NCBI GenBank assembly: GCA_001804285.1
Contig: MHFR01000042.1
Span: forward strand, 78,725-142,724
Direction of reading: 5' to 3'
Source of the DNA: Candidatus Danuiimicrobium aquiferis
Lineage (GTDB): Bacteria > Omnitrophota > Omnitrophia > Omnitrophales > Danuiimicrobiaceae
Length of the DNA stretch: 64,000 nt
Made by a program: the position numbers and the translations under genes. Under the pieces are notes generated by a model, which had not been told where the DNA came from, made no database searches, and saw nothing but the letters and a program-made list of their open reading frames with translations. Shown here piece after piece: positions 6,339 to 57,400 of the stretch (position 1 is its first letter; each line of letters opens with the position of its first letter).

Positions 6339-6340
6339 GC

Positions 6341-10209: not shown

Positions 10210-10211
10210 AG

Positions 10212-12516
<2,305 letters not shown>

Positions 12517-16838: not shown

Positions 16839-16885
16839 CAAAAAACCGGTCAACCTGAGTTACATAGAAAGGTTGTTCATAACAT

Positions 16886-21091: not shown

Positions 21092-21239
21092 GTTATTCCC
21101 GCCCCGTATCTGTGTCATTCCCGCGAAGGCGGGAATCCACATGCCGAGTAAATCTCAGCGAGAATTATGGATCCCCGCTAACCCCGGAAAAGCTGGGGCC
21201 GGCCCTTTCTTTCCCAAGGGAAACTTGCGGGGATGACAA
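21092..21239. repeat. Composite paired-hairpin elements between nuoL and nuoM (includes the long-loop variant GGATCCCCGC taaccccggaaaagctggggccggccctttctttcccaagggaaactt GCGGGGATGAC)
   Basis: Stems match the family; the loop has nested mini-hairpins. Confidence 0.8.
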
Positions 21240-21257
21240 CGCTTTAATAATGTCACT

Positions 21258-24000: not shown

Positions 24001-24112
24001 ATCCCAATGGCCAAGTACGCAATGACCAACGAGATTCCCAAAAGAAGAAATTCCAATTGGAATTTATGATTTGCCAATTTATTGGTCATTGAGATTTGGT
24101 CATTGATCATTT
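24001..24112. repeat. CAATGACC/GGTCATTG-type intergenic element between nuoJ and nuoH
   Basis: CCAATGG..AATGACCAA...TTCCAATTGGAATTT...TTGGTCATTGAGATTTGGTCATTGATCATTTT. Confidence 0.75.
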
Positions 24113-25266
24113 TATTCATATGCATACTTATAAATTCTTTTCTTCGGTGCGACTTTTCTGTTGGCGACGTAAATCATCAAAACAGAAACGGTTAAAATAC
24201 AGAAACTGAGGATGTCATTCAACGGGAAACTCAAATGCACCCAAAGTGCCGCAGCCAATAAATTAATGAATGCAAGCGGAAGGAGTCCTCGCCAGGCGAA
24301 ACCCATGAGCTGATCCACACGCATTCTCGGAAACGTGCCGCGAAACCACATCATGATTGAAATTAAAACGAATGTTTTCGCGAAAAACCAAAGCCAACTC
24401 GGAAGAATCGGCCCCTGCCAGCCGCCGAGATAAACCGTCGTGACAAGAGCAGAAACGCTGAACGCATTCATGTACTCTGCCATATAGAAAAGCGCGAATT
24501 TCATTCCGCTATATTCCGTATGAAATCCCGCGATAATTTCCGACTCGCCTTCGGGAAGATCAAACGGGCAGCGGTTGACTTCGGCCACGCCGGTTAAAAA
24601 GAAAAGAATGAATCCAACCAATCCCCACGGCGTGAAAACAAACCACTGTAAACCTTCCTGTGCGTTGACGATGGCAACCGTGGAAAAGGAGCCGACGACG
24701 AGAAGCGCCGGCACAATCGAAAGCAACATCGGGATTTCATAAGATACCATTTGCGCGACGGCGCGCATTCCGCCGAGGAGTGAAAATTTATTTCGCGAGC
24801 CCCATGCAGCCGTAAAAATCCACAAAGTCGAGGTGGATGCCACCGCGAAAAAGAAAAGAATTCCGATTGAAAGATCGGAAGGAATCATGTTCCGGCCGAA
24901 GGGGATCACCGAAAAAACAAGCAGGGAAGGGATGATCACGGTAATGGGGCCGAGGAAATGAGCAAAGGGGTCGGCTTTTTGGGGCACGATATCTTCTTTG
25001 GTGAACATTTTAATTCCGTCTGATAGGGGTTGAAGAAGGCCAAAGATTCCGCAGCGGTTTGGGCCGTAACGATTTTGCATCCGGCCGATAAATTTCCGTT
25101 CGAGGAGCGTCAGATACATCATGACAACGGGTCCGAAAACGCAAAGCGTGACGATGACGATAAAAATAGAAATCAGGATCATCATCCATTCCGGGAGGAA
25201 CGGCGACAGGATGTCGAGAATGATTTGTTTTGCTTTAATGAATATTTGGTCAATGGTATTTAGCAT
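24112..25266 (-). CDS. nuoH: NADH-quinone oxidoreductase subunit H
   Basis: LLERKFIGRMQNRYGPNRCGIFGLLQPLSDGIKMFTKED matches the NuoH/ND1 signature. Confidence 0.9.
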   Translation of the reverse strand: MLNTIDQIFIKAKQIILDILSPFLPEWMMILISIFIVIVTLCVFGPVVMMYLTLLERKFIGRMQNRYGPNRCGIFGLLQPLSDGIKMFTKEDIVPQKADPFAHFLGPITVIIPSLLVFSVIPFGRNMIPSDLSIGILFFFAVASTSTLWIFTAAWGSRNKFSLLGGMRAVAQMVSYEIPMLLSIVPALLVVGSFSTVAIVNAQEGLQWFVFTPWGLVGFILFFLTGVAEVNRCPFDLPEGESEIIAGFHTEYSGMKFALFYMAEYMNAFSVSALVTTVYLGGWQGPILPSWLWFFAKTFVLISIMMWFRGTFPRMRVDQLMGFAWRGLLPLAFINLLAAALWVHLSFPLNDILSFCILTVSVLMIYVANRKVAPKKRIYKYAYE

Positions 25267-25279
25267 AGGTTAATTTAAA

Positions 25280-25392
25280 ATCTCAATGACCAAGTGTCAA
25301 TGACGCAATGAAATCCCAAAAAGATTAATTTCCAATCGGGATTTAAAATATTGAAATTTTCTTGGTCATTGCGTGCTTGGTCATTGGTCATT
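25280..25392. repeat. CAATGACC-family element between nuoH and nuoI
   Basis: Shared AATGACCAAG / CTTGGTCATTG subunits and AAATCCCAAAAAGAT core. Confidence 0.75.
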
Positions 25393-25891
25393 TCTCTTTT
25401 GCCTTCCTTTTTTCTTCAACCTTCTTTGCTGTTTCCGGCCGGATTTTCGAAAAATATTCGGCTGATTTCGCGAGCCGGTCTTTGGTGTACAAGAATTCTT
25501 CGGATCGTTCGTACGCTGACAGCTCAAATTGACGGTCCATATAAATCGAATCAAACGGACAGACTTCTTCGCAAATTCCGCAATTCATACAAACGGAATA
25601 ATCAATATCGAAAAATTTTGGTTGCTTCAAAGGTTTTCCGGCTTCATCTTGTGCCCGGACAATGCTGATGCATTTTGGCGGACATTCCTTTGCGCAGATT
25701 TCGCACGCAACGCAGCGGAGTTTGTCCGGTGATTCATCGTAAACAAGAATCGGAAACGTTCGAGCGTGCTCGCTTAAGGTAATCCGTTCTTCGGGATATT
25801 GAACAGTGGTTAAACGCTTGCGTGTGAAATAACTGAGCGTAAAATTCTTAATCGTGACCCAAAGGCCCTTTAGAACTCCTAAACCGTACAT
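25388..25891 (-). CDS. nuoI: NADH-quinone oxidoreductase subunit I (2x[4Fe-4S] ferredoxin)
   Basis: Two CxxCxxCxxxCP motifs (CVACEICAKECP, CMNCGICEEVCP). Confidence 0.9.
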   Translation of the reverse strand: MYGLGVLKGLWVTIKNFTLSYFTRKRLTTVQYPEERITLSEHARTFPILVYDESPDKLRCVACEICAKECPPKCISIVRAQDEAGKPLKQPKFFDIDYSVCMNCGICEEVCPFDSIYMDRQFELSAYERSEEFLYTKDRLAKSAEYFSKIRPETAKKVEEKRKAKEK

Positions 25892-26054: not shown

Positions 26055-27215
26055 TTATCTATCTACCTCTCCCAGCACAATATCAATACTTCCTAAAATA
26101 ATAATGACGTCCGCCACTTTTTGCCCGATACACATATCTTCGAGTACGGTCAAATTGATAAAACTTGGTGCGCGAACATGGTAACGATACGGCTTCCCTG
26201 AACCGTCGCTTACAAGATAAAACCCAAGTTCGCCTTTTGGCGCTTCCGTACGCCCATAAGCATCGCCCTTCGGTACCTTTAAGGTGCGCGGCATTTTTGC
26301 TGCTTGCGCGCCGGCCTTGCTAATCACTTCGCCGTCCGGGATTTCGTTAATGGCTTGCTCAAGAATCTGCAGGCTTTCGCGCATTTCAAGAATCCGGACA
26401 TAATAACGGTCGTATACATCGCCCGCTTCGCCCACGGGCACGCGGAATTTAAACCGGCCGTATATAGAGTACTTGTCGATTTTCCGGATATCATACGGAA
26501 TTCCGGACGCGCGAAGCACAGGGCCGGTAATTCCGGCGTTGACCGCCAAAGCTTTCGGCAAGATTCCGACATTTTGGCAGCGGGATAAAAGGATTTCGTT
26601 ATGGGTCAGCAACTCTTCGAGTTCATCCAGGAATTTTGGAAATTGATTCACAATCTCCCGGACGCGTAGAATAAAATCCGGCGGAACATCTCGCTTTACG
26701 CCGCCGAAACGGAAATAATTGCACATCATCCGGCTTCCCGTGACATCTTCAAATAAATCGAGCAATTTCTCCCGTTCGCGGAATGCGTAAAGGACCGGCG
26801 TAAAAAAAGCGCCGAGGTCGTTCAGGAGAAATCCCACGAGAACGATATGGTTTATGAGGCGGGTGAGTTCGGCCATGATGACGCGAAGATATTGCGCGCG
26901 CTCCGGGACTTCAATGCCGGCCAGTTTTTCGACGGCAAGCGCGTATGAAAAATTATTCGCGAGTGCGCAAAAGTAATCCAGACGGTCTGTGTAAGGCATG
27001 CAGGCGAGCCATGACATATTTTCCATCAACTTTTCATGATTCCGGTGGAGATAGCCCATGACTGGTTTCAACCGGATCACTTGCTCGCCGTCCAATACGA
27101 CATCCATTTGAAATACGCCGTGCGTGCTCGGATGTTGCGGGCCGAGGCTTACTTCAAGCCGCTGTGTGTCGAGGGTTGATTGTTGATCCATATTTTGTAG
27201 GTAAGGGCAATTCAT
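26055..27215 (-). CDS. nuoD: NADH-quinone oxidoreductase subunit D (49 kDa)
   Basis: Full-length NuoD conservation including [10 protein letters not shown] and the C-terminal ...GEVDR. Confidence 0.95.
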
Positions 27216-27229
27216 GAATTGCCCCTACG
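27198..27229. repeat. REP-like palindrome GTAAGGGCAATTCATGAATTGCCCCTAC, intergenic nuoD-nuoC
   Basis: Near-identical to the 39322 copy. Confidence 0.85.
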
Positions 27230-27705: not shown

Positions 27706-27733
27706 GTAGGGGCACGGCGCGCCGTGCCCCTAC
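27706..27733. repeat. REP-like variant GTAGGGGCACGGCGCGCCGTGCCCCTAC, intergenic nuoC-nuoB
   Basis: Same GTAGGGGCA...TGCCCCTAC ends, different loop. Confidence 0.75.
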
Positions 27734-28384: not shown

Positions 28385-28520
28385 TTCTCAATGACCAAAT
28401 CCCCCTCCAAAATGCATGGCGGGCAGGCAATGGCCAAGGAAGTTCCAATGTTTCAAATTTCAATTGGAACTTTATCTTTTTGGAATTTCTTTGTGTCATT
28501 GAGATTTGGTCATTGGTCAT
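28385..28520. repeat. CAATGACC-family element between nuoB and nuoA
   Basis: Reverse complement of the 25915 copy's core (AATGCATGGCGGGCAGGCAATGGCCAAGGAAGTTCCAATG...). Confidence 0.8.
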
Positions 28521-28526
28521 TTTAAT

Positions 28527-28898
28527 CTATTTCCATTCCAGCACATTCTTTTTCCATGCATAAATTAAACCGAGAATTAAAATTGCGAGAAAAATAAACA
28601 TTTCTACAAGAGCAAATAAGCCCATTTGCTTATAAGCAACCGCCCATGGATAAATAAAAATCACTTCAATATCAAAAATGACAAAAATGAGTGCGTAGAT
28701 ATAATATTGCACTTTGAACTGAATCCACGATTCGCCCTTCGACTCAAGGCCGCATTCGTAAGTTGATTGTTTGACAGGGTTTGGTTTCTTAGGAGCAAGA
28801 AAATAGGCCAATACCAAAGGGATGAAGGGAAAGACAATTGCGACCAGAAAAAACAGGCCTATGAACAGGTACTGATAGCTATATGCGTCTGGGGTCAT
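28527..28898 (-). CDS. nuoA: NADH-quinone oxidoreductase subunit A
   Basis: 123-aa 3-TM protein at the head of the nuo cluster. Confidence 0.85.
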
Positions 28899-30284: not shown

Positions 30285-30560
30285 ATTTCTCATCACTAAT
30301 GAGAGATTCCGCTCGTAAGAGCTGCGGTGCAAAGAGGGTTTACTTCTTTGCGACGCAGGTTTGACTTTCCATAGATCATTTTATAAGGGAGTCAAAACCA
30401 GTCCTTGAGCTTTCATTGAAAGTTAAATTTCGTTTGAGAGTGGCGCAAGGGCAGGGCTTATCTTTTGCGCCCTGTTTGAACAAGGGCGCAAAACTTTGGA
30501 CGCAACTGATTGCGCCCAAAGCGACTTTCTCGTCGATTCACAAAATCGATAAGAAAGTCG
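30285..30560. repeat. MITE-like element (reverse orientation) carrying a ~100-bp internal insertion
   Basis: Ends match the family in reverse complement; central segment 30360-30445 is unique. Confidence 0.75.
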
Positions 30561-30629
30561 GGTTAGTGAGATTCTACGTCGATACAATAGGAAATAAAGG
30601 CGAAATATTGTGAAAGGGGAAGATTTACC

Positions 30630-32200: not shown

Positions 32201-32227
32201 ATAACCGCCTTTTTGCTTTTGGCCTAA

Positions 32228-32275
32228 CCCGACTTCCTCATCGATTCGCAAAATCGATGAGGAAGTCGGGTTAAT
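32228..32275. repeat. Mini-copy: terminal hairpin of the MITE-like family only (AACCCGACTTCCTCATCGATTCGCAAAATCGATGAGGAAGTCGGGTTA)
   Basis: Perfect 20-bp stem; same terminal sequence as the family. Confidence 0.7.
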
Positions 32276-37704: not shown

Positions 37705-37743
37705 ACGCGCGATCTTACGGAACGTAAGTCGCTGCGTGAATTT

Positions 37744-37851
37744 GATCCCCGAATGTCTTTATCGGGGAACCATGTTTATTAGATTCCCGCTAACCCCGGA
37801 AAAACTGGGGCCGGTCCTTTCTTTCCCAAGGGGAGCATGCGGGAATGACAC
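37744..37851. repeat. Paired-hairpin element with long-loop variant between nfeD and the stomatin gene
   Basis: GATCCCCGA..TCGGGGAAC then GATTCCCGC taaccccgg...ggggagcat GCGGGAATGAC; a compensatory stem change relative to the 21171 copy. Confidence 0.8.
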
Positions 37852-37912
37852 AAAAACTGTAACGAGAGTAATTAAAAGAAAACACAATAATTTTTAACAT
37901 CAGGAGGTTCAC

Positions 37913-38760: not shown

Positions 38761-39270
38761 TTACGTTTGATCCGTCGGATTTTGTCCGAACGGGTTGTTC
38801 TGATAGGGAGGATTGGGGTTGTTGTCCGGAGAAATGGGCTGATACGGGTTGCTTGGCGGAGTGGCAGGATTTTGCGTTTGGGTTGTTTGGGTTGTTGTTG
38901 ATGGGGTAGCGGTTTTTGACTTTGTGCTTTTTTGGGTGGATTTTGATTTTAACGCTCCAGAGCCTGACCCTGAGCTTGCACCGGTATTTTTGAGGAACCA
39001 GTAATAACCTTTGGATCCCGCGTCTGATTTTGTATTCCACGTTGATTTTGAAGTGCCTGCATTTTGAAGGCCCGGAGTTGTTTGAGAAGCAGTAGTAGCT
39101 GTGGAACCGGGGGCTGTCGAATCGGGCTGCGTTGTCCCTTGCGGCTGAGGATTGCCGGTATCGGAAAGGCCGCCCAGAGGATTGTTGTTAGAGTCTCCTA
39201 AACAGAATGCCGCCGGAGTGCATACTATAATTCCGAGAAATATAAAGATAACAAACGTGAATATTTTCAT
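38761..39270 (-). CDS. Secreted low-complexity Thr/Ser/Pro/Gln-rich protein
   Basis: Signal peptide then a compositionally biased T/S/P/Q/N-rich sequence; could partly be compositional artefact. Confidence 0.4.
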   Translation of the reverse strand: MKIFTFVIFIFLGIIVCTPAAFCLGDSNNNPLGGLSDTGNPQPQGTTQPDSTAPGSTATTASQTTPGLQNAGTSKSTWNTKSDAGSKGYYWFLKNTGASSGSGSGALKSKSTQKSTKSKTATPSTTTQTTQTQNPATPPSNPYQPISPDNNPNPPYQNNPFGQNPTDQT

Positions 39271-39321
39271 AAAATGACCCCTTCAATAGATAACATGAAA
39301 AAAGGGGATTTGCAAGGGAGA

Positions 39322-39349
39322 AGTAGGGGCAATTCATGAATTGCCCCTA
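39322..39349. repeat. REP palindrome GTAGGGGCAATTCATGAATTGCCCCTAC (canonical copy) downstream of the RAYT gene
   Basis: Perfect 28-bp palindrome with 5' GTAG. Confidence 0.9.
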
Positions 39350-39375
39350 CAAAACGGCAAATAAAATGTCAAAGG

Positions 39376-39903
39376 TTAATGAAGGTATTCTGGATCCGAT
39401 TCCCATTTGAGAGGATTTTCTTGAATATATTTTCGATATTCAAATAATTCGTTTTCGTTGCGGATGATGTGTTCGTAATAATTACGTTGCCAGACAGGGG
39501 TGCCGGGGGTATCCCGAAGACGGTTGATTTGTTTGGCGGTGTTCATTTTCAAATATCCGATAATTTTTGATAATAACATATTCCGTCGTTTTGGACGGGT
39601 GGTTTGTAGGGGCAATTCATGAATTGCCCCTACGGATGCGGTATTATCGGGTGAGATGTAAATGATTCCATGGATATGGTCAGGCATCATGATGAATTCG
39701 TCGGTTTTAATATTTTGAAAACGATGTTCCAATTCATTCCATATTTTTGGGACCATAACACCAAAACAGCTCGGGACAAATTCGCTGTTTTTCATATGTC
39801 CCAATAAATATTGACGATCTCGTGTGCATATTGTAACAAAGTAATAACCTGATGATGAGTAATCCCAGTATTTTAACCGCAGAGTTTTGCGATTATTCGT
39901 CAT
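39376..39903 (-). CDS. REP-associated tyrosine transposase (RAYT, IS200/IS605 Y1 HUH family); start at 39903, overlapping the upstream stop as ATGA
   Basis: YYFVTICTRDRQ (cf. RAYT YFFTVNT), HUH motif PDHIHGII, catalytic Tyr motif WQRNYYEHIIRNE. A REP palindrome is embedded in frame at 39606-39633. Confidence 0.8.
   Translation of the reverse strand: MTNNRKTLRLKYWDYSSSGYYFVTICTRDRQYLLGHMKNSEFVPSCFGVMVPKIWNELEHRFQNIKTDEFIMMPDHIHGIIYISPDNTASVGAIHELPLQTTRPKRRNMLLSKIIGYLKMNTAKQINRLRDTPGTPVWQRNYYEHIIRNENELFEYRKYIQENPLKWESDPEYLH
39606..39633. repeat. REP palindrome identical to 39322, inside the RAYT coding sequence in frame (encodes VGAIHELPL)
   Basis: Exact 28-bp match; the reading frame is maintained. 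Confidence 0.9.
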
Positions 39904-41609
39904 TGAACCTTGGGATTTTCTACAGGTGCTTCCCACAACTGATAAAATTCAGGCTGATCACTGTAAATTGTTTCAAGTGCTTTCGTCAAAAAACCATTCG
40001 TGTAAGCATCAATATTTGCGGTGAGCTCATCAATCCGGAGGAGTGCGTTCATTCGTTCCGGAAAAGATTCTCGCGGCTCGAGGATAAATTCCAGCTGGTT
40101 TCGCCGGCGTTCGTAATAAAGCCGCGTGATTTCGCCGAGGAGATCGTTCCGGAGTTCCACCATCATTTTCTGGCGGGAATCGATGGACGTTTGTGCGGAA
40201 TTAAATAGCAAATCACCGACGTCCCATCCGAGATCAAAATCCCAACTTTCGTCAGTGTCGGCCGGGCCGAAGATAAATTTGTCGGCATCGCTGGTTCCGC
40301 CGCGGTCGAGATCGACATTGTTTGATGTCGAAAAACTTTTTCCGATTGAAAATGAAGGAATAAGAGCGCGAAGGCGCGACGTCCACTGCCAGCGTTTGAT
40401 TTTCCAGTTGCTCACATCAGCGTACAGGATCACTTCCTTCTGGACAGCCCGGACTGGCGGCTCTTCGCGCAGCAAATCATTTAATAAATTCCAGTGGCCG
40501 GGCGAAAAAATAACGGGATTTTCAGGATAAAAAACCTTCGGATCAATGGTGATGAAAAAAATACCATCGTCGGTTGCTGCGTAAAGGATTTCAGTCTGGT
40601 TTTTCCGTGCTAACATTAATTGCCGGGCGGCTGTGGCCGGCAGGCCTTCGTATAATTCTTTCCAGCCCCGGGATTTTTCATCGTAAAAGAAAACGCCTTT
40701 TTCTGTGCCTGCAATAACGGTTTTTGCTTTTGCCGAATAAACAAGATCGAGGACGTTTGTATTCAGAAGGCCTGTTTGCGGAAGGCTCTCCCAGTGATTT
40801 CCTTCGTCATCGCTTGTGAAAACTCCGCGCGTTGTACCGATGAAAATCCGGGAAAACGGATACGGTAAAATGAGAATTTTCTGAATTCGGAACGGATTTC
40901 GTGTTAGCGCTTCGTTCGATTCGCCGGAGCCGTTATTTTCCGTCTCTTCCATCGTTTCAATTTCCGTCAAATCAGAAAGAACCGATTGCGTGTAATAAAT
41001 GCGGTCTATTTGACGGCGGGAAGAAATATACCGGTAAAGTCCTTTTTCACTTGCAATAAACATTTCTTCGTTTTCAAAATCTGTTTTTAAATCCCAAACG
41101 ACTTCGCGCGAAAATTCATTTGTTTCTGCCGCCCAAGTTTTTCCGTTATCGTTACTTTTGAAAATGCCGCCGTGCGTGGCGAGATAAAAAATTTCAGGTG
41201 TTTTCGGGTCACGGCTGATGTTAATGGTGTTTTGATCGTTTGGATTCACGCCGTTAAAAATTTTTGTCCATTTTCCGCCGTTGTCTTCCGATATATAAAC
41301 GCCGTCTGAAGTGAGCAGAAAAAACCGGTTTTCCTGAATGACCAAATGATTCATTTGAAGCTCGGAAGCAAAGGCTGTCAGAGTTTTCCAGTTTTTTCCG
41401 GCGTCATCCGAGCGGTATAAATTTCCGCGCCATCCGATAAAAAGGCAATCCGGGTTTTCGGGGTGAGAAATAACAAAGTCGGTTTTTCCGTGTGCCGGCG
41501 ATTGGGATAAAATTTCCCAGCCTTGCGCGAATGCAAATTTGGTGTATACTCCGCAGATTAGGAGAAAGAGAAGAAAGCTAAAACGTGTTTTTTTGCCCAC
41601 AAATGTCAT
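39900..41609 (-). CDS. Secreted BNR/Asp-box repeat beta-propeller protein (start reassigned to 41609)
   Basis: Four S-x-D-x-G-x-x-W Asp-box repeats (SDDAGKNW, SEDNGGKW, SNDNGKTW, SDDEGNHW); signal peptide after the reassigned start; the upstream extension lies in a repeat. Confidence 0.6.
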   Translation of the reverse strand: MTFVGKKTRFSFLLFLLICGVYTKFAFAQGWEILSQSPAHGKTDFVISHPENPDCLFIGWRGNLYRSDDAGKNWKTLTAFASELQMNHLVIQENRFFLLTSDGVYISEDNGGKWTKIFNGVNPNDQNTINISRDPKTPEIFYLATHGGIFKSNDNGKTWAAETNEFSREVVWDLKTDFENEEMFIASEKGLYRYISSRRQIDRIYYTQSVLSDLTEIETMEETENNGSGESNEALTRNPFRIQKILILPYPFSRIFIGTTRGVFTSDDEGNHWESLPQTGLLNTNVLDLVYSAKAKTVIAGTEKGVFFYDEKSRGWKELYEGLPATAARQLMLARKNQTEILYAATDDGIFFITIDPKVFYPENPVIFSPGHWNLLNDLLREEPPVRAVQKEVILYADVSNWKIKRWQWTSRLRALIPSFSIGKSFSTSNNVDLDRGGTSDADKFIFGPADTDESWDFDLGWDVGDLLFNSAQTSIDSRQKMMVELRNDLLGEITRLYYERRRNQLEFILEPRESFPERMNALLRIDELTANIDAYTNGFLTKALETIYSDQPEFYQLWEAPVENPKVQ

Positions 41610-41673
41610 CCCCGAATGTTTTAGTCGGGGATCTATAGTTTGTGGATTCCCGCTTAAAGCATGCGGGAATGAC
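41605..41673. repeat. Paired-hairpin element at the 5' end of the BNR gene
   Basis: ATCCCCGA..TCGGGGAT and GATTCCCGC..GCGGGAATGAC. Confidence 0.8.
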
Positions 41674-41794
41674 AATAAAGAGGGAAAAAATCGAAATAGG
41701 TTGTTTTTTTTCATGTTGTTTAGATCTCCTTATAATTGATTTATGATCATAAAGTATATGATTTATAAGAATAATGTCAAGGGGGAAGTTTCAA

Positions 41795-41945
41795 GGATGA
41801 AATTCCAATGACCAAGCACACAATGACCAAGTACACAATGACCAAGCACACAATGACCAAGGAATTTCCAATATTTCAAAATCCAATTGGGAATTTATTT
41901 CTTTGGGATTTATTTGCGTCATTGGGTTTTGGGCATTGGTTATTC
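41795..41945. repeat. CAATGACC-family element upstream of ychF with a 4x tandem 13-bp subrepeat (CACAATGACCAAG)
   Basis: Direct subrepeats plus terminal GTCATTGGGTTTTGGGCATTGGTT. Confidence 0.75.
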
Positions 41946-41963
41946 TAATTTGAGGGAACCAAA

Positions 41964-44037: not shown

Positions 44038-44160
44038 ACTGAAAATCCCAATGTCCAAATCCACAATGACCAAAAAAATCCCAAGAAAATCAAATATCCA
44101 ATTGGACTTTGGACATTGGGAGTTATTTGCGTCATTGTGTGCTTGGCCATTGGTCATTTA
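44038..44160. repeat. CAATGACC-family element between cysE and rnhA
   Basis: AATCCCAATGTCCAAATCCACAATGACCAAA ... GCGTCATTGTGTGCTTGGCCATTGGTCATTT. Confidence 0.75.
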
Positions 44161-44178
44161 ATTCACACGTTTAGCATT

Positions 44179-44986: not shown

Positions 44987-45061
44987 GGTTCTATTCCCCT
45001 TCAATCTCCTTATAAAAAGTATCTGTTTAGCGTTCTGAAGTGGCGAACACGCCAGGTTCGT

Positions 45062-45125
45062 GTCATGCCCGCATGCTTAAGGCGGGCATCCACAGTTTCT
45101 GGATTCCCGCTTTCGCGGGAATGAC
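45062..45125. repeat. Paired-hairpin element downstream of the TSUP gene
   Basis: GTCATGCCCGC..GCGGGCATCC and GATTCCCGC tttc GCGGGAATGAC. Confidence 0.8.
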
Positions 45126-45406: not shown

Positions 45407-48400
45407 ATGAGGGGAAAATCCAGAATACTTAGATCGATAGCAGCGGTGACCGTATTCTTTTTTTTCTGGAATACCGCTACAGCGTACAGCTTGCCGGTTC
45501 TCGGACTTTTGCCGGCCAAGTTAGGCACCGTCCAATCCACACCTGAGCATATTCCGTCACAATCAACCGACAAAACAGTTCTGCTTTTATTAAATGCTCA
45601 TACTTCAAGTGACGCACAAAAAAACATCGCCGAAATGCTGGAGTTCTTTCAGGCTCAAGGCATTGACCTGATTGGCTTAGAAGGCGCGGATGATCGGATC
45701 GACGGTGAGATATTCCGCAGGTTCCCGCATAAAGAGTCGCTTGCGAAAGCCGCTTGGCAGATGGTAAAAGACGGAAAGCTGACCGGAGCGGAATACTTTT
45801 ACGTTACAGCGGAAAAAATACCGGCATTTTACGGGATCGAAGACAAAGCGCTTTATCACGAAAATAAAAATGCATTTGTCGCGACTACCCAATTGCGTGA
45901 AAAACTTGCCGTAACTTTAGAAAAGGTTTCAAACGCCGCCGCCGAACTCAAAAACAAAATTTACTCCAAAAAACTCAAGAATTTCGATTCCCTTGTCACA
46001 CGCCATAAAAATCAGGACACAAGCTTCCTCGATTACTTTTCACAATTAAACGAAGCCTCCGACGATGCGGATATCGCGATTCCGACTTATCCGAATGTTT
46101 ACGCCTTATCAAAAGCAGTTGAAAAGGAAAAAACCCTCAATCAGAAAAAAGTTGCCAAAGATATCGAAAAAATCAAGAAAACCCTCCCGAAAGACGCAAT
46201 CCGGGAAGATATTTTTTCAATGGCCGGTAAAAACGATCTTGAATCTCGGAATAAAGATGAAAATGAAGATGTTTTATATATATATAAGAAGCTCTACACG
46301 TATTTTTCGGGGTTGGTTAATCCAAACGTAGGGGCGGGGTCATCCCGCCCGTTTGAGAAGGGCGCGGAGACCGCGCCCCTACAATTGAATGATTTCAAAC
46401 ATTTTAAGCGTTACTACGAATGGCTTGAAGCCGTTACGGCAGTCAAGCAGGCATCTCTTTTCGAAGAATTAGATGCGCTTGTGGTGCAAATTTACAGCCG
46501 GATCGCAAAATCGGATAAAGAGAAAACGCTGCTTGAAATCAACCGTTCTTTTGAGACATTTCAACAGAAACTTGCAATTCAATTGACGCAAAAAGATTGG
46601 GCGAGGGTGAAGGCTATAAAGGTGCCTGGCACGTTTTTTGTGCCTGGCACCTTTTCCGAACTCGGCGACCGTGCTCCTCAAATTTCACCGGAAGAACTCT
46701 TATTGATCGAACAGGCGAATGCACAGGCCTCCCAATTTTATGAAGTTGCCGAAAAACGAAACGTAATTTTCACAGATAAAATTATCAACCAGATGGAGAC
46801 ATCACAGAAAAACGTTTCCGTTGTTGTGGTCGGCGGTTTCCACGAAGCCGGCCTCAGAGCAGCGCTCGAAGCAAAAGGCGTTCATACGGCCGTGATTACG
46901 CCGAAAATGAAAGATGCGATTTCTGACATTCCGTATATAGAACGAATGACGGGAAAGCCCACCCAGCTTGAAAAAATCATTACCGAAGCCATGAGCGCGC
47001 TCGAACGTGAAATCGTGATTTCCGGAAACGCACCGGACGAGATGCGGCGAAATGCTGCAGTGGAACTTGTAACGGCTTCCGTGCTTGAGCGGTTGTGGAA
47101 TACGGATCCGGCACGCCGGGAACAGGTTGCCGATGAATTGAGTCGATCGATTTCCAGAATAATTCCGGGCGTTCAACTTGGTTTGCAGAAACCGGTTATC
47201 CCGGATGATTGCGAAGGTTCGGAAAAGTGTTTGCAAATTCCCGTTGTAATCAACGGAAAACAAATCGGCTTGTCCTTAAAACAGAATGGCGCGTCGAAAA
47301 CGTTTAGCATAGAGCGGGCAAAAGCCGGGGCGCTTCATGAATCGCCCGTACAACAACCATCCGAAGGGGCAATTTATGAATTGCCCGTACCGGTGAATGA
47401 GAATCCAATATTTCCCGGCGCAAAGCGATCTTTGTTCGCTGGTCACCTTGGTGCTGCAGCGGCAGTTGTCATTTCCCGTTCGGAAGTGCGGACCGTTACA
47501 GTTACCAGAGAAGAAAATGTTACGACGATTACGTTTGATGACGGAACGACAGTTTCTGATAGCAATGCGCAAAAATTAGCGGAAAAACTCAAAGCGGTAC
47601 TTCCTGAAAATCTGAGGACAGGAGTTTTAGAGGGAACCGATAAAGCAGCACAGATTTATGTTGTCTCGGGGTCGCGTGGGCGGGATATATACATATGGAA
47701 TACGGATGAACTTCAAACTGCTTTAAATGAATTATTAACTTCCAAATCCGCAACGCCACAGTTTCCGGCAGCAGCATCTCCGGTTATTGAGGCTCGCTCA
47801 GAACACCGTGTTGCTAAAATATTGACTGTGGTGGGTGTTATGGCGGGAGCGATTGCTTCTTACATAATTCCTAATCAAGCGATTCATTTGATCCAGCAAT
47901 ATAATGCGGATATATTTAAATGGGGTTTGATCAGTGTGGCCGGAACTCTTGTTGGGGGTGCGGTCATAGGATTGCTTTGGCATGAAGAAAGAGCGTGGCG
48001 CCAGGCCGCCGCGAAAACGCGCAACATAACAGATCGTTCCAGTGCTGATCAAGAGAAAGCCCAACGCTCCGAAGTGCGGATGAACGCTGATTTTGATGAT
48101 TTGTTCGGTACAAATTTATTTTCGTCAAGGTTGTCATTGGTGTTTGGGGTAATCCTTGTTGTCGGTATCGGCATCGGTATTGCTGTGAATCGGCATGAAC
48201 GTGGGAATACTCCTTTTCCAACCACTATGCCGGCAGAAAGTGCGCCCTCAAGTAATATTCAACCAGCCACCTGGCCAGCGGCGCGCTCCGAAGTGCGGAC
48301 GCAAAGATCGCCGGAGGAACTTTTAAACTTGTATGGAAGATTTGCGCGTGAATTTGCACAAAGAGCCGCGCCGTATCCCATAGATGAAGTCGGAATTTTT

Positions 48401-51400
48401 CACGTCATTAATTGTTTGAGAAAAATCCCCCGCGATACGAGTGACCGGGAAGGAATGGCGGATCCAAGACTATCAAAACCAATCGCTTATGCTATCGTGA
48501 AGCAAGCCCAGCAAGATGATGCTGAATCGAAAGCGTTGGCCGACCGATTACATATTCCTAAGATCAACCCATTGTATCTCGCGGCATTTGAACAATACTG
48601 GAAATATTTAACTACGCGACAGCCTCCCGTCAGTGACATAAGCCAAACTCTCGGAGTCCCCGTGACCTCCTGGCGGTTTGTGAAAGCGCTTCCGAAAGAT
48701 TCCGGCGAACTCAAAATTGTTCTGGATTATTTTCTGCAAATGCTGCGGAAAACCAAAGCGCAATTAGACCGGTCCCATGAAAGCATGATGGGCGATTCAA
48801 CGATAGTGGATGACATTTTAGGCGGAAGCACAATTCCAAACGGCGAACAGGTCGAAGCGATCAGAATGAGTTATGGCGACGAAGCTGTCGAACCGACGTT
48901 GAGGGAACAAGTTAAAGAATTATTATCGAAAGTGCCCGCACCGCAAGCCCGGCCCAAAGACCTGCAAAAAATTTCATTTGAGAAAATTCGTAAAGATCCG
49001 ACAAATGTGGAGAACTGGGAAACGCTGATCGCGGAATTTAATAAAGCGTTTGTTTATTTGCAGGGTTCTATCAATAAGGAAGCCGACGAGATTCGGAAAG
49101 ATGTAAAAAAGCTACGTGCCGAACCCGGCATGCGGGCATGGCTCGTCAACGGTTTTAAAATCAAGAATTTAATTAGAAAAATTGACCAGGGATACAGAAC
49201 CATCCAGTTTTATTCGGATATTAGCGCGCAGCTAAGCCAGTTGAGAATTCTTGCCCAGGCGGTCCATGACGCCAAGGCGAGTCCGCAAAAATTGAGAGCT
49301 TCTCCCAAGACGGGAAGCGGTCGTTCGGAAGTGCGTGGGTCCTTGAGAGAACGGATGAAAGGTTTTTGGAATGAATTTTCACCGGCTCAACAGCATATTC
49401 TCCGCCGTCAAGCTGGGACCTTGCTATTTATTATCGGAGTTGTCGGAATTGCAGTGGGGTCTGCTTTATTTGAACGCAAATCATCGCCGCCGACGACAGC
49501 TCCTTCTCCTACAAGTCAAAGATCAGAAATACGGACAACGCCAAGCACAGAGGAATTACTTCGGATTTCCGAATATATGAGGTTTAAGGATTGGCAAATT
49601 ATTTACAAGGCCGGATCCGGCCATCCGGGCGGAACTCTTTCCGCGACAGAAATTCTGGCAACGCTTTATTCCGACAGGGAGTTGCTTCGTATCGACCCAG
49701 TGCGGGACAGAAATACAGACTATACAAAACGTTGGAAAAACCGTGACCGGCTTGTGCTGTCTAAAGCACACGTCGTTCCGATTCAATATGTGGCTTTGTA
49801 TCTTTCCGGACTTTTGACGCGCGAGGAGATTGAAGCTTTACGTCAAGATTCCCAAGGACTTGCTCAAGGGCACGCGACAATGACGACGTCCGGTATTGAT
49901 CTTTCGGGAGGCGTACTCGGTTACGGGGCTCCGGCAGCGATGGGAATGGCGGTAGCGGCAAAAATGGACGGCCGCGATTATCATACCTTCACGCTGATCG
50001 GCGACGGTGAAATGCAAAAAGGTCCGATGTTCGAAATGATGCAAATCGCTCCGCAGCTCGGCCTCGATAATTTTACGGCGATCGTGGATTACAACCAGTA
50101 TCAGCAGAATCGCGCCAGCACCGGTTACACGGCCTTTGATTATGACAAGATGTCGAGTGTGTGGGAACTCGCCGGATGGAATGTCATCAAAGTGGACGGA
50201 GAAGATTTCAAAGACAACGCCCGTTATATTGAAGAATTGCGGAAAGGTCTTCGCGATTCCAAGAAAATGAAAAACAGCAAACCGACGGTTGTGATGGTGA
50301 AGTCCATCAAAGGCCGCGGCATTTCGGTCGCAGAAAATTTATTCCGCGCCGGCAATACAAAATTTCATGGTAGCGCTCCGAATGCACAGCAATATGAAGA
50401 AGGCGTGCGGGAAATCGCACCCCGGCTCGGCGTGAGTGTTGAGGACAGAAATCTGGCAGATATTGAAAATGATTTAGAAACAATCGGCGACGAACTGCGG
50501 GGAAAATTCCATGACAAATGGCAGATTAGGCAAGGCGGCTTTTTTGGAATCGATCAGAGGAATGACACGTCAGCAGCCCTTGCTTACCGGGAACGGGCGG
50601 CAAAGGTTGGCCAGATTCAACCCAAAGCATACAAACCCGGAGAGGAAGTCGCGACGCGTGTCGCCGCCGGAGACAAACTTCTTTATGAGGCAAGCAGAGA
50701 TCCTTCCCTTGTGTTTGTGAGTCCTTCTGATTTACAGGATTCCGTCAATTTCAAACCGATTGCGAAAGTATTAGGCGAATTTGGTTCACCGGACAAAATA
50801 GGTGACTTTGGTCCCAAAAGTCCGCAAGGCAGATTAGTCACTATCGGAATTATGGAAGACGGCGGCGTGGCTTTGTCGGTTGGAATTTCGGCTGCAGGAT
50901 TAGGATTTAAACCTTTTGTCGGAACGTTTGATCGTTTCGTCGACATTATGCTGACCACCGTTGAAATGGCTGCGCTTAACAGAATTCCTGTTGGAATTGT
51001 CGGCACTCACGCGGGTTCCGAAACCGGGCCTGATGGCGGCGGAAATTTTTCCATTAAAACACCGGCGTTGATAGGCGCTATTGCAGATCACGGACAGGAT
51101 ATGGCGATGTTCGAGCCTGCGGATGCTCCGGGAACCGTGATGGCGGTTGATCAAATGATTACTACTTTAACATCCGGCATGCCGGCTTATTTAAGAGCCA
51201 GCCGTTCTCCGCGGCTCGTGAGAGATCGCGCAATGGCTGTTCGAGATGAAGGAGAAAATGGATTTATTGTTTGGAAATATGCCCTGAATCCCAAAATTAT
51301 TTTAGTCGCAAGCGGTGCGACAGTGACCAATACCATTAAAGCAACCGAGCTGTTGGAATCTCAAGGGATACCTGTCAGTGTTATCGAAATTACGTCGGTG

Positions 51401-54400
51401 ACGGGAATCGAAAAACCGTTTTCCGGCAATCGTCTTGCCCAAACGTGGCTTGCACCGCAAGTTCCGGTTTATACCATTCATGATGCATCAGCAAATGCTC
51501 TTCATGATCCCGTTCTTGGAGTTGCGCAGAGAACGAGAGCTTACGTTCCGGTTTATTCGCGCGGGATCACCGATGCGGGTTCCGCGTCTCCGGCTGCCAT
51601 GTTTACGGCCAATCGTTTTAATGCAGATCAAATTGCCGAAGATGCGGAGGTTATTGTAAAAGGATCAGTTCCTCCGGGTGTTTTCGTCCGGTCTGAAACC
51701 CGCAACATGACAAATAGTTCCAGTGAGGAGTTAACCGAAGCGCGCAACCGTGAAAATAATTCAGAGGGAATGTCAACGGAAAGCGCGCAAGAGTCCTCGT
51801 CTGATCAAAGTGCTAAGACAAGGGCCGAAGCCAGGGAGTTATTGTTACAAAAATTAGAAGGCCTCCTCGGACAATTAGAACAAATCAAGGACGAAGCAAA
51901 TGCCGATCGAATAAAAACATATCTCCACAGTGTGTCGGAGATGATCAAGATGGCGGGCTGGATGCCGGAAGTAGAGAAATTTATTAAAGAGCATTATGAG
52001 ACAACTTCCGGGGCTCAGGTGTTTGAGCCAACGGTGGATGAGCAAACAAACCAAGATTCTTTAGTGGCGCGACGAATCCGGGAGTTAAGGGAAATATTCT
52101 TCGCTAGTTTCAAAAATGCAGCTGAAGACAAAATCATGCAAGTGGCGGGCGGCTATCTGCCGATGCTCGAAGACTTCCAACGCAAACTTGCTTCCTTAGC
52201 CGAAATCGAAAGTTTTGTGAAAGAAAAGATACAACAACAGATACTGGCATTGGTTGAAAAAACGTTCAACGCTATTTTTGAAAATCCTGCTTTGATAGAT
52301 CCTGAAATTAGAGAGGCTTCCTATGTGTTTTCTGTGATCGGAGACGTTGGCGGGAAAGAAGCGGCGCTTAAAAACATTGCCGCTTGGCTTCGGGAAAACA
52401 AGTTGGAACTTCTTCGCACGCGCATTGAAGAAGGGTTGATACTATTAGGAAAGAATGACGCCAAGACCGACTTAAGTCATGCCTATGAGCTTTTGACGGG
52501 GCGTCCTGCGCCTTCGTATCAAGATGATCAAGTGGGATCCCTTGTCGCAAGCCCCATCCGCTCCGAAGCGCGCAACGAATTAAGTTCCGAGTTGGAAGTT
52601 CAAAGTTTGAAGTTGGGGAAAGAAGGTAAACCTGAAACTTTAAACTCAGAACTTGGAACTCAACTTAGGGCCGAAGCCCGCAACATAACAGATAGGTCCA
52701 GTGAGGAGTTAACCGAAGCGGGTGCCGGTACTTTGGCTGATCAAGAGAAAGCCAAACGTGCCGAAGTGCGCAACCTCGGAAATAGTTCAGAGGAAACATC
52801 AATAGAAAGCGCGCAAGTGTCCTTGTCTGATCAAAGCGCTAAGACAAGGGCCGAAGTGCGGGAAGTTGACTACGCCTATTTGGGGGCTTACGGTTTTGTC
52901 GGGGCCGCGATGCTTGGCGCAGCATTTTATGGGAATTATGCCGCTAACCGCAAAGTAAAAACACCAGTCCAGGAAGCCGTATCGCCGACAGCGCACAGCT
53001 TGATCCTTCCGGTTGTCGATACAACAATCTATGTGACGGAACAGGAATTTCAAGAAATCGTTCAAAAAGCGTTTCCGGCGATTGGGACAGCGCCGCTTGT
53101 GTTTGTGACTCCCGAACAGAATACTGCGTTTCTTAAAACATTTTTACCGCACAGAGAACAACATCTATTCAAAAATCTGGTTTTGGATGAACCGCAGCGA
53201 ACGCTCGGGGGGTCTATTAGTTCGGATCGGGTGCTGACGGGTGTAGGGCAGCCAATCAAAGTATTCGGATTTGTCGGAAATGATGATGCGGGTATATTTG
53301 CGCTTGAGAAACTTAAAGGATCCGGCATCGCGACAGGGATCCAGGTGCTGGATGGCGGAATGACATCTCAAACGCTTGTGATTGAAGTGGTGAAGCCCAA
53401 GACGGACGGCAGTGGCGGTTATGATTCGGCAGGAAGATACTTTTTGCATGTTAAAGGCGTGAATGAAGAACTTGGGAAATATTTAGAAAACGGACGTTTG
53501 AAAAGATGGTTTCTTCAGGAGTTCGGAGAAAACGAAAAGCCGATTCTCCATATCGGTTACGAGGCGCTTTCGTCGGAATATTATTTCCGGAATTTATACC
53601 GGCTGATTCGGGAACTTCGTGCGGAAGTGCCCGGCTTGCGTGTTGCGTTGGATACGGTTGCTGATTTCGGGAATTTATGGGGCAAATTTTCAGATGATGG
53701 GAAAAAATTACTCGCAGAACTGGATGTGCTGACCGTTAGTCTCGACGAAGCGGTAGCCATTTACGAAAAGCTGACAGAAAAAAAACTTACGGACATGAAA
53801 GAAAAAGATATGACGCTCGCTCAGGCGGAAGCGGTGTCGAGAGTCATGGTGCCTTGGTTTCTTGCGACAATGGAAAAAGGCACGGTTTTAATCAAGGCGG
53901 GCAATAAGGGAAGTTTTTATGGATCGAATCATTGGCCGAATGGCGGCTGGCGGAACCGAAAGATTCCGTTTGCATGGATGCCGATTGTTCCTAATGAATT
54001 GATACAAGCTGAATATGCGGCAGAAGTGGATGGCGAAAAAGTTGCCAATACGACCGGTGCGGGCGATGCGGCTTCTGCCGGTTTTATTCAGGCGCTGCAT
54101 GACGGCTATGATGTCCATCAGGCGGCGGCACTGGCTTCGGTCTACGGAGGTTTAAGTTACGGCCAACTCGGAGGAGGCGTCATCGGGCACCCTGCCGAAA
54201 CAGTGGGGAAACTTTATCAGGATTTTGTTGCGGCAAACCGCGGCGATTACCGGCCGGCAGCATTTAGACAATCGTCACTCGCGGAGATGACGGACAAAGA
54301 AATTGAGACCCTGATCATCCGGAGAATTGTTGCTAATAACTTTAAGACAGTAAAACCATGGAGTTTTGGGGCTAAAATTGTAAATGTGGAACCGGTCGAT

Positions 54401-57400
54401 ATTAGTGAAGCGATTGAAAAAGTAGGCGCTGATTTGATTAAACAAGTCCGCGAAATTATTTTGAAATATGGGGAGTTTCGAATTGGGATAGAACCGTCTC
54501 ATGACCTTAAAGAGGATGATACGTCTGAGCCCCAAAGCATGTGGGTTTATCCGCCGTCTTTTGCGACTCAGGGAAGAATGTTTTTCGAATGGGTATATGA
54601 TGCTGTTGCGCAGTATGGAGAAGAACTTTCCGGAAACGGCCATCGTATTTCTTCTTTACAGATGGAACAAATCAGAAAGTTTTTGGCGGCATATCCGGAT
54701 GACAACATTCTCGGCATTGTCGCGATCGACCGTTTTCATTCTCAATATAAAAGAGTAAACAAAATAAACGACGGACAACTCCATTATTTTATTGTCAGAC
54801 GGAATTCTTTTGAGGACGATAATTTTCTCGTTTTGCATCCTGCCGATCAGGACTTTGCGGTAGCGTTTGCCCGTGCAATGCCTTTCGAATTTCACCGGAT
54901 GCCCTTAGGGGCTCTGGTGTTAAATACTCCTGAAGAATTGGGCCAGATCAGCGGTACGGATGTTGTGCTCCAGATGCAGTTTATCCCCGTCTCGAAAATG
55001 GCCGGAGTGACTGCTTACAATTTTGATCCGAATCATGCCTTGATCCAGAAATGGTCTGTGCTTGCAGGAACGCCTGTGTTAGAAAATTGGATAAGAAATC
55101 AGCTTGAGATTCGGATTGCAGAACTTTCCCGCTCGGAAGTGCGAAATACGTTTACTCCGGCGGAACTCGGCGAAATCACGCAGCCGCTGATCGACATTCT
55201 CCATCTTGTCCGCGAATTAGATGCCACATCGAACGGATCTTCTCAATTGAGAGCATTCATTCCTCAAGTCCGGCGGGAAATTGAACGCCTCAACATCGAA
55301 GGATTGAATGCCGTTTTGGTCGGAAAAATTATGCCGGTTGCACAGGGGCTTAGCCATGCGGAGCGGGCTCACCACAGATTTTGGACAGAAACAATGCCTG
55401 CGCCGGTCAGTCGGATGGCTCAAGAATTAGCAACCCGGCAGCAATCGTTAACAGGTGATATTGATCAAAAACTGACAAGAGCAAAGGCTGCTGCGTTGAA
55501 GCCCGTAATTACTCATTTAGTAAAAGCGTATGATTTGGTTGCCGATGCACGCGCAATGCAAAGAAAAGTTTTGCAGGATTCAGAAATTGACGGGTTGTTT
55601 AAATCAACCATTGAGAAAATCGAAGCACTTCAAATTGAAGAAGCGATTGGGTTGATTGATCAAATTGTTGAAACGATAAATTCTCTTCTTGAACTTGATC
55701 CGAAGCAATTGCCTTCAATGGTTTCAAATTTAGAACAAACACGGACCGAACTAAACATTGTTCGCCGTCTATTAGAACCGCGTGCCAATGCCGGCGCGGA
55801 TGTAGCTGATGCGAGGGCCGAAGCCCGCGACCTTGGAAGTTCTTTTGTCATTCCCGCGTCCGCCAAACAACGCGGTCGGATCCGCCAAAGCGTTAGTGGC
55901 GGAAAAGCGGGAATCCAGCTGGATCCCCACTTGCGTGGGGATGACACCAATTTGAGAGCCGAAGTGCGGACTGATCAGGTATCGGCGGAAGATTTGGATT
56001 GGGAACGTGCGCGGCTTGAGCAAGAAGAGGAAGATTTAAGAATTAAATGGGAAGCAACGGAATCGGCATATCTTAGATTAAAACAGCTTAGATCAAAGCA
56101 GCAAGGCGGAATTAGTCATAAGGCACTTACGGATGCTCAACAAAGAGCCGCTGAGGCTAACGGGCAATATCTAAAAGCGCAGCAAGCTTTGTTAGCTTTT
56201 CAGAGACGGATTGCTTCGCGAAACGTTTCTTCGAAACCTTCCGAAACTTTAGTGCAACTTCCGGCGTGGATGTACTCTGCTGTTGGGATTGGTAAACCCA
56301 CGTTCCCGACCGTTGCGGCTCAAGTTGCGGCATTAACCGGTATCGGCGGAGCTTCGATTCCAGTACCGCGTCAGGTGCCAACGTCGTTGCTGCAAATTAT
56401 TAGGTCGGAAGCGCGCAACGATCGAAGTTCTTCTGTCATTCCCGCAAAAGCGGGAATCCAGCTGGATCCCCACTTGCGTGGGGATGACACCAATTTGAGA
56501 TCCGAAGTACGGGGCACAGAGTCCCCAGTGCAAGCGGCGCTCAAAAATATTCTGAATGCGCATTTTTATTTAGGAATCATTCCGGGCCTGATTGCATTTT
56601 CGGTTTTTCCATTATGGAGCGCATCGTTTAGTGCGGAGCGCAGACTTCTTCAGACGAAATTAAGCCGGCAGGGAATTTCTTATTGGCAAGTGGATTGGTC
56701 CGAAATTCCGGCTGACGTGTATGATCAAATCAAAGCCATCCGGGCGTCCGGCGGCGATTTTGATGTTCAGTTCAGTCCGGCCAGGGTTGATGATGAATAC
56801 TCAGACTATCATTATCCGCAAACGCTTCGCATTGTGCCGGTTTCCCTAGAAAAGGGGACAGGCAATCGTTCGCTTTTGAGTCATATGCCTGTCCCCTTTT
56901 CTGCGTTAAACGCTGATCAAGCGCGAGCCGAAGTAAGAAGTGAATTCGGAGAAGTCTTAAATCCAATTTTGGCGGATGTTTATAAGATTTTAGAAAGAGC
57001 CGGACGGAAGTTAAGTTTAAGTCCTCTCGAAATCGAAGAAATCAAAACGCCGGTTAACACCTTCTTGAAATGGGTTGAGTCAGAACACGCGTTATCGCAC
57101 GGTCAATATGAACAAGCGCTGGATATCCGCGTCCGGCATAGTAATCCCATCGGGAAAGACGGAAAACCCGAGCGCGCCCAGGGCGGAATTCGCATTTTAC
57201 TGCCGGAAAATCTCGGAAAAGGGTTCAATGACGAGAAATCCAAATTCTACCAAACGCTCAACAGAATGATTGCTGACGGAAAAATCCAGTTAAATGATAG
57301 TGACCACGAAGTTCAAGCTGCATTAAATCGATTCCTGGAGCAGTGGCTGACCGAAGAAACGACAGCGCTTGCCATTGACATGAGTCTGAAAAATAAAATT

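Follow-up and report, generated by a model that had tools for sequence, protein, structure and literature searches.

An in-frame copy of its own REP palindrome within a subclass 2.4-like RAYT gene of Candidatus Danuiimicrobium aquiferis

Subclass 2.4 RAYTs and the gene in the window

Among the TnpA-Y1 subclasses distinguished by Quentin, Siguier, Chandler & Fichant (2018, BMC Genomics 19:475, PMC6006769), subclass 2.4 of the REP-associated tyrosine transposases (RAYTs, or TnpA-REP; REP, repetitive extragenic palindrome) is equated with group 4 of Bertels et al. (2017) and has as its published defining peculiarity the presence of REPs in frame inside the transposase gene (PMC6006769). Members are known from Cyanobacteria, Bacteroidetes and various other phyla, have a mean length of 194 amino acids, and carry the signature NH[IFV]H, WQ and YIxNNP together with a variable insertion between beta3 and alphaC (Table 1 of PMC6006769). 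Their REPs are of 'double-foot' form, with GT[AG]G at the 5' end, C[TC]AC at the 3' end and three G-C pairs at the base of the stem, and the insert has been read as a peripheral extension that probably has little effect on activity (PMC6006769). Here we describe a gene that is probably of this kind, with one such palindrome inside it and another beside it, in a stretch of 64,000 nucleotides (nt) from the uncultured bacterium Candidatus Danuiimicrobium aquiferis (contig MHFR01000042.1, positions 78,725 to 142,724), which as a whole is referred to below as the window.

Only RAYTs of groups 2 and 3 have been studied biochemically, and cleavage and strand transfer have been shown for those. In the TnpA-REP of E. 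coli (RayT or YafM, PDB 4ER8; group 2, subclass 2.2), the HUH motif is H59/M60/H61, the catalytic residue is Y115, and the hairpin is contacted by K82 (Messing et al. 2012), which sits on a 'conserved DNA binding' helix equivalent to alphaC; the GTAG is contacted by W94, Q95, E100, H101 and R104 (Quentin 2018, PMC6006769). REPs inside RAYT genes receive no mention in Nunvar 2010 or Di Nocera 2013. Our literature searches on the peptide and DNA strings returned nothing relevant, and we found no paper later than Quentin 2018 on the function of the internal copy.

The RAYT gene of the window (39376-39903, minus strand), apparently a domesticated transposase gene, encodes 175 amino acids from an ATG at 39903, a GTG at 39936 being a longer and less likely start, and is present in the 64 kb as one copy. 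The product passes the Pfam Y1_Tnp profile (PF01797; 29.1 bits, cut-off 23), and its AlphaFold model (mean predicted local distance difference test score, pLDDT, of 81.6) retrieves 4er8_A as the top PDB match in Foldseek, followed by 2vjv_A and 2xm3_A, the TnpA proteins of IS608 and ISDra2, all three with probability 1.00. Two parts of the family profile, the HUH strand and the WQ...YI..NP region, can be aligned with E. coli TnpA-REP. The HUH motif named in the original prediction, which was made from the sequence alone, is real: H76-I77-H78 (39670-39678, minus strand), on model strand 76-83, aligns with H59-M60-H61. The catalytic tyrosine had, however, been placed in the wrong motif, WQRNYYEHIIRNE. 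The WQRNYYEH taken for the tyrosine motif corresponds to the GTAG-binding residues, and the 4ER8 alignment puts the equivalent of Y115 at Y159 in RKYIQENP (39427-39429, minus strand), a predicted catalytic residue that is located on model helix 150-169 and is invariant across the family alignment of 26 homologues. The segment WQRNYYEHIIRN (39457-39492, minus strand), aligned to 4ER8 residues 94-105, holds the counterparts of the GTAG contacts (W138, Q139, E144, H145 and R148) and lacks the catalytic tyrosine. The protein ends 16 residues past Y159, with no conserved C-terminal extension domain. By fold and motifs, then, the open reading frame (ORF) reads as an intact HUH/Y1 enzyme gene for a predicted RAYT.

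The gene also appears to be stably placed. Its ATG overlaps the stop codon of an upstream 604-amino-acid BNR/Sortilin-like gene (ATGA) and, since a strong promoter-like site (11/12 positions) precedes that gene, the RAYT is probably co-transcribed with its BNR host gene. An identical RAYT protein with the same neighbours was found on 23 metagenome contigs, and in 4/4 of these that were checked the gene is identical at the DNA level, hence uninformative on population variation. Because the frame is intact and the synteny is shared by all 23 contigs, we regard the gene as intact and stably placed, not as a pseudogene.

A perfect 28-bp palindrome, GTAGGGGCAATTCATGAATTGCCCCTAC, with 28/28 matches at each site, lies at 39606-39633, within the coding sequence, and at 39323-39350, 26 nt downstream of the stop codon, where it forms the flanking REP of the REPtron; no match arose by chance in 100 dinucleotide-preserving shuffles. 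The prediction of a REP-RAYT pair in which the gene holds an in-frame copy of its cognate REP is borne out by these two perfect 28-mers, the downstream one being present as claimed, albeit one base away from the 39322-39349 first given for it. Without any break in frame, the internal copy is read GTA GGG GCA ATT CAT GAA TTG CCC CTA and encodes V91-L99, VGAIHELPL. The palindrome has the form GTAG-GGGCAATTCATGAATTGCCC-CTAC, and its GTAG-GGGC...GCCC-CTAC matches the subclass 2.4 double foot with a G-C stem base; the exact 28-mer is tabulated as a double-foot REP of a subclass 2.4 protein, ABB27827.1 (Table S1 of PMC6006769). Folded as RNA, the internal copy gives a hairpin with a local minimum free energy of -27.5 kcal/mol (z -6.2), and as DNA one of -11.9 kcal/mol. 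When checked as a possible canonical intrinsic terminator, the downstream copy did not score as one. REP coordinates are given here without strand, since orientation has no meaning for a perfect double-foot palindrome.

Where in the enzyme does the internal copy sit? The original prediction had asked whether the nine residues fall in a loop, and in both the AlphaFold model and the 4ER8 alignment they appear to do so. Model residues 84-109 show no regular structure (pLDDT ~59-65) and separate the HUH strand (76-83) from a long helix (110-130), so that the REP-encoded residues are predicted to lie in the equivalent of the beta3-alphaC loop of 4ER8, which in the E. coli protein is short and contains no repeat. 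The helix that directly follows the REP-encoded loop in the model (alphaC, residues 110-130, LSKIIGYLKMNTAKQIN..., 39514-39576, minus strand) is the predicted REP-hairpin-binding helix. The spacing from HUH to the W motif is 64 amino acids in the window protein and ranges from 48 to 86 across homologues.

Distribution and conservation of the palindrome

The REP family is represented in the window by seven copies or variants, the internal one included. Additional copies had been predicted between atpA and atpH and at two nuo intergenic sites, and these fared differently. The copy between atpA and atpH exists (14054-14102), but a 21-nt insert, CTGCCTCGCCGGCAGGCGGGC, which can itself form a small hairpin, splits it precisely at the apex (TTC|ATG); this copy was read from the spacer, having been missed by a mismatch search. 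Nested insertions at the apex are also seen in the internal REP of one homologue (locus L007), and the acceptance of such insertions by REP apices is, tentatively, a point that may go beyond Quentin 2018. The copy between nuoD and nuoC (27201-27228) is there with 1 mismatch, while that between nuoC and nuoB (27706-27733) is of a second core type, GTAGGGGCACGGCGCGCCGTGCCCCTAC, sharing the ends GTAGGGGC...GCCCCTAC with the GTAGGGGCAATTCATGAATTGCCCCTAC copies and differing in its core (ACGGCGCGCCGT). This variant is identical to the internal REP of a RAYT in a Chloroflexia metagenome-assembled genome (L043), and a search of the 64-kb window for a second RAYT cognate to it found none. That GTAGGGGCACGGCGCGCCGTGCCCCTAC lacks a cognate RAYT in the window and matches an internal REP elsewhere suggests that the genome has another subclass 2.4 RAYT outside the window. 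A degenerate doublet (47324-47351 and 47363-47390), absent from the original prediction, lies in frame inside a giant ORF (..AGALHESPV..EGAIYELPV..) and makes this ORF, after the RAYT gene, the second coding sequence of the window to tolerate a REP.

One side effect on annotation may be mentioned. The CATG of the REP apex supplies an ATG, and mechanical ORF calls consequently start inside REPs ('MNCPY...'), as for nuoD (26055-27215) and a 49-amino-acid ORF (39188-39337), the REP parts affected being 27201-27215 and 39323-39337. The real nuoD start is probably the next methionine (MDQQ...).

A scan of metagenome contigs for the exact 28-mer gave at least 84 occurrences in at least 80 loci. Among the matches listed (84 exact 28-mers), 1 is inside a RAYT gene, 2 are within 300 nt of one and 81 are elsewhere; of these 81 listed RAYT-distant copies, most are at positions that lack a long open frame and about seven are within long ORFs. 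The palindrome is therefore a genuine dispersed REP.

To place the internal copy in its family, we used 80 homologous genomic loci (L001-L080, with the RAYT usually at 10001-10550), which with the window make 81 genes. The locus scan used two patterns, VGAIHE[LS]PL and WQRNYYEH, and many loci were recovered through the latter. Under a uniform criterion of occupancy (a perfect stem of at least 8 containing GGG), a hairpin is present inside the gene, in the same loop, at 64/81 loci (79%), within 300 nt upstream at 26/77 (34%) and within 300 nt downstream at 19/76 (25%), against a background of 0.073 per kb at distances greater than 1 kb. Of the 17 'empty' genes, about eight retain a degenerate copy. 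The hairpin-bearing homologues come from many phyla, and a GC-clamped palindrome occupies the same loop of nearly every gene. The original prediction had called a REP inside its own RAYT unusual, a view that is not supported: internal REPs define subclass 2.4, this very 28-mer has been tabulated for it (Quentin et al. 2018), and most homologues here have the hairpin. That the internal site is fuller than either flank is a point that may, tentatively, go beyond Quentin 2018.

The palindromes in this loop usually share the ends GTAGGGGC...GCCCCTAC, and their inner 12 nt vary among genes yet stay perfectly complementary (CAATTCATGAATTG, GGTTCGCGAACC, GCACGGCCGTGC, GTATGGCCATAC and ACGGCATGCCGT). 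Some genes contain two or three tandem or nested internal copies (L007, L008, L048, L050 and L053). In Gracilimonas amylolytica (L006), a 50-bp perfect palindrome with a stem of 25 lies inside the RAYT coding sequence at 10254-10303 (positions 290-339 of the ORF starting at 9965), the REP having been extended symmetrically into the flanking codons.

Two lines of evidence bear on whether it is the DNA or the encoded peptide that is maintained. First, 34 in-frame double-foot REPs are read in two phases, 22 in phase 0 (V-G-A-xxxx-P-L) and 12 in phase 1 (x-R-G-xxxx-A-P-T), with none in the third phase, which would read TAG. One and the same REP type can occur in both phases among related genes, as VGAYGHTPL in L019 and GRGVWPYAPT in L037, and again as VGAVREPP in L032 and RGGSRTAP in L011. 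Second, in the eight genes whose REP has the AATTCATGAATT core, third codon positions are 92% identical in pairwise comparison over the REP codons and 50% identical over the codons of WQRNYYEH, a motif that is invariant in the protein. Since the hairpin occurs in both stop-free phases, it is the DNA that is maintained, with the peptide as a passenger.

The stem of the internal REP also covaries with the helix next to it. Identity over the helix segment is 0.55 between genes of the same REP type and 0.33 between genes of different type, a difference reached in 0/2000 permutations; for the 14-residue helix core the values are 0.45 and 0.26 (0/5000 permutations). The N-terminal part of the protein gives 0.51 against 0.49 (0/2000), and the C-terminal part 0.55 against 0.55 (429/2000). 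The residues that follow the conserved (F/L)K of alphaC are predicted by stem type, and the rest of the protein hardly at all: FK-MN goes with AATTC stems, FK-TVS with GGTTCGCG, FK-IG with GAAWA, LK-TFSARR with GGGTTT..AAACCC, and K-YQ with GGGGTTACCCC. Such covariation is expected of a specificity determinant, because the equivalent helix of the E. coli enzyme contacts the hairpin through K82. Alternatively, it could result from co-transfer by recombination, the helix adjoining the REP in the DNA. The stem-helix covariation is, tentatively, another point that may extend Quentin 2018, and a stem-to-alphaC 'code', itself tentative, could guide specificity swaps in a RAYT group that lacks biochemistry.

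Explanations for the internal copy

The explanation that we consider probable, on analogy with the systems described above, is that the gene encodes an active or recently active RAYT and that the internal REP is a tolerated passenger in a permissive loop. The assignment of the protein to TnpA-REP subclass 2.4 of Quentin et al. 2018, and so to Bertels group 4, is likewise probable, with its activity extrapolated. By analogy with E. coli TnpA-REP, the enzyme would bind the hairpin that the palindrome forms on single-stranded DNA, the 5' GTAG being read by the WQ..EH..R motif and the stem by helix alphaC, and would cut and rejoin DNA with Y159 and an HUH-bound metal. REP copies beside the gene, in the atp and nuo spacers and in frame within coding sequences may have been seeded by such activity. 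One member of this REP population would be the internal copy, housed in the surface loop between beta3 and alphaC, where two stop-free phases are tolerated; it would persist since imprecise deletion breaks the reading frame, and would be kept at the active REP consensus by replacement, gene conversion or hairpin-templated correction. From a loop site that tolerates two stop-free phases it follows that VGAIHELPL is a passenger of a DNA element, not a functional protein motif, and that the gene has not been inactivated.

Several observations weigh against this explanation. The protein scores 63.3 bits against NCBIfam REP_Tyr_transpos (NF047646), under the cut-off of 80, a shortfall that lowers confidence in equivalence to other RAYT groups, from which the model was presumably built in the main, and not in the fold or motifs. 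The window protein has DHIH in place of NH[IFV]H and YIQENP in place of YIxNNP, each a departure by a single residue; in homologues that are 45-59% identical to it, the motifs are PNH[IVLF]H and YIxNNP. Activity of subclass 2.4 (group 4) on a perfect double-foot REP is extrapolated from groups 2 and 3, and the 28-nt unit is not a multiple of three, which sits poorly with its insertion in frame. Finally, the 28-mer is nucleotide-identical between genes whose proteins share some 45-59% identity, and this, like the excess occupancy of the internal site over both flanks, weakens the passive-passenger part of the explanation and fits direct selection equally well.

Direct selection is the basis of the rival that survives best: RAYT genes of this subclass would keep the internal hairpin as a cis-element, instead of tolerating it as an insertion. 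The RAYT might bind it in its own single-stranded DNA or mRNA as an autoregulatory site, it might act as a brake on translation or mRNA stability, or it might be a protected 'home copy' through which the substrate and the neighbouring recognition helix are inherited together. In favour of this rival, no other REP site of the locus is occupied as consistently as the internal one, DNA conservation far exceeds what the peptide would need, the RNA hairpin is very stable, and the stem type covaries with the adjacent alphaC, barely with the N-terminal part and not with the C-terminal part. On the other hand, some 9-17 of the 81 homologues have a degenerate hairpin or none and still have intact ORFs; copy number and position in the loop vary, and nested and decayed copies occur, as in the birth and death of insertions; and the conservation can also be explained by homogenisation with the extragenic REP population. 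We hold a selected cis-element to be unlikely, if clearly the foremost of the alternatives. As for the autoregulatory hairpin in particular, an idea already put forward in the original prediction, the evidence points neither way.

The 'home copy' form deserves separate mention. Here hairpin and adjacent alphaC would evolve, or be exchanged, together as a specificity cassette, with the internal REP as its maintained home copy, a proposal that we rate as improbable to the same degree. If true, each subclass 2.4 RAYT gene would physically carry the substrate of its own product, and the home copy, more stable than any other member of the REP population, might be a source from which extragenic REPs are re-seeded, or might hold RAYT expression down. 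Were the internal hairpin selected, an enzyme gene would, unusually, have its own DNA substrate built in as a functional element.

It is very unlikely that the REP marks a recently inactivated (pseudogenised) RAYT, as the original prediction had suggested, or that the gene is an ordinary mobile transposase of the IS200/IS605 insertion sequence (IS) family. A repeat in a transposase gene often signals disruption, and there is a weak match to the NCBIfam IS200 model (NF033573); this match, at 20.4 bits, is however far under the cut-off of 55, the frame is intact with catalytic and GTAG-binding residues conserved, the identical gene occurs in the same chromosomal context on 23 contigs, its start overlaps the stop of an upstream gene that is itself preceded by a promoter-like site, and neither a TnpB gene nor IS ends are present.

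Least credible of all, and barely worth entertaining, is the reading of VGAIHELPL as a conserved functional protein motif, with the palindromic DNA and its extragenic look-alikes secondary (for instance decayed RAYT fragments): we adopted it at first, when the peptide looked invariant in 26 homologues from many phyla in the first protein search, and dropped it on the many other cores and both phases shown by loci found through WQRNYYEH, the invariance being largely an artefact of a word-seeded search and of the locus-scan pattern VGAIHE[LS]PL, with frozen third codon positions and extragenic copies in short atp and nuo spacers without RAYT-like flanks also standing against it.

Other repeats in the window and comparison with known systems

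Repeats are unusually abundant in the window. Composite palindromes (GTCATTCCCGC...GCGGGAATGAC / GGATCCCCAC..GTGGGGATGACA) that are unrelated to the REPs form a second family, with copies at 4846-4922, 16771-16845, 21110-21243, 37741-37855, 41604-41679, 45061-45112, 55888-55969 and 56431-56512; copies are read in frame as part of the giant ORF (VIPAKAGIQLDPHLRGDD) and of the N-terminus encoded by the 604-amino-acid BNR gene. Further small dispersed families comprise 55-nt hairpins (AACCCGGTTTTCTCATCGA...), CTTTGGGCGCAA..TTGCGCCCAAAG elements and short tandem arrays of CAATGACCAAG type, one of which, directly before the start of the BNR-RAYT operon, consists of 3.7 copies of a 15-mer; these small families lie at 6118-7896, 17239-17434, 30494-30566 and 32220-32274, and at 24005-24117, 25276-25397, 28480-28527, 41806-41950 and 44041-44163.

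The giant open frame (45407-64000, plus strand; more than 6,197 codons) has no stop and runs off the end of the window. It strings together domains typical of everyday metabolic enzymes, namely transketolase N-terminal and pyrimidine-binding, PfkB kinase, Glu/Leu dehydrogenase, PLP-dependent enzyme, hexokinase and phosphoglucomutase domains, separated by transmembrane-like and low-complexity stretches. Between the enzyme domains, from 47477 to 62032, there are 18 copies of the peptide motif R-[SA]-E-[VAI]-R, where composition predicts 0.1; the remainder of the window, read in all six frames, has 1. Different codons are used from copy to copy, so what is conserved is the peptide, not a DNA repeat, and the motif resembles a linker or processing site that recurs along a polyprotein.

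How, then, does the RAYT locus compare with systems already described? The TnpA proteins of IS200/IS605 elements (IS608, ISDra2) are, like the predicted product of this gene, HUH/Y1 enzymes of single-stranded DNA that recognise DNA hairpins. In contrast to them, the window gene has neither subterminal left- and right-end hairpins delimiting a mobile unit nor tnpB, and is single and syntenic.

In-frame insertions of REPs and of Rickettsia palindromic elements (RPEs), such as the RPEs of Rickettsia and the GTAG/CGTC REPs in uvrA, recB and other genes (Di Nocera et al. 2013), offer a precedent for a palindrome tolerated in a coding gene, presumably in a loop, as for the window REP. Those insertions are sporadic, at varied sites and in unrelated genes, whereas here the host gene is that of the presumed mobilising enzyme and the loop is occupied in most members of the family.

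E. coli TnpA-REP shares with the window protein the fold, being its best structural match, and acts on REPs with a 5' GTAG; HUH motif, catalytic tyrosine and GTAG-contacting residues align. Sequence identity between the two is only ~19%, and E. coli REPs, unlike the window REP, fold into imperfect, bulged hairpins that have the GTAG foot on one side only. The E. coli protein, moreover, has a short beta3-alphaC loop without a REP and a C-terminal tail (E161) that is absent from the window protein.

The closest likeness is to subclass 2.4. The window protein has WQ, the YI..NP tyrosine motif and HUH, falls within ~175-200 amino acids without a C-terminal extension, and carries the variable beta3-alphaC insertion; double-foot GTAG...CTAC REPs both flank the gene and lie in frame inside it, the identical 28-mer is tabulated for a member, and homologues are scattered over many phyla. 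It departs from published cases, apart from the motif substitutions discussed above, in coming from an uncultured organism and in its apparent operon with a BNR-repeat gene. The locus does not change the understanding of these systems and is a further ordinary example of a published subclass 2.4 feature, of modest value as a clean test case in which perfect REPs inside and beside the gene stand together with several decaying copies in one 64-kb stretch.

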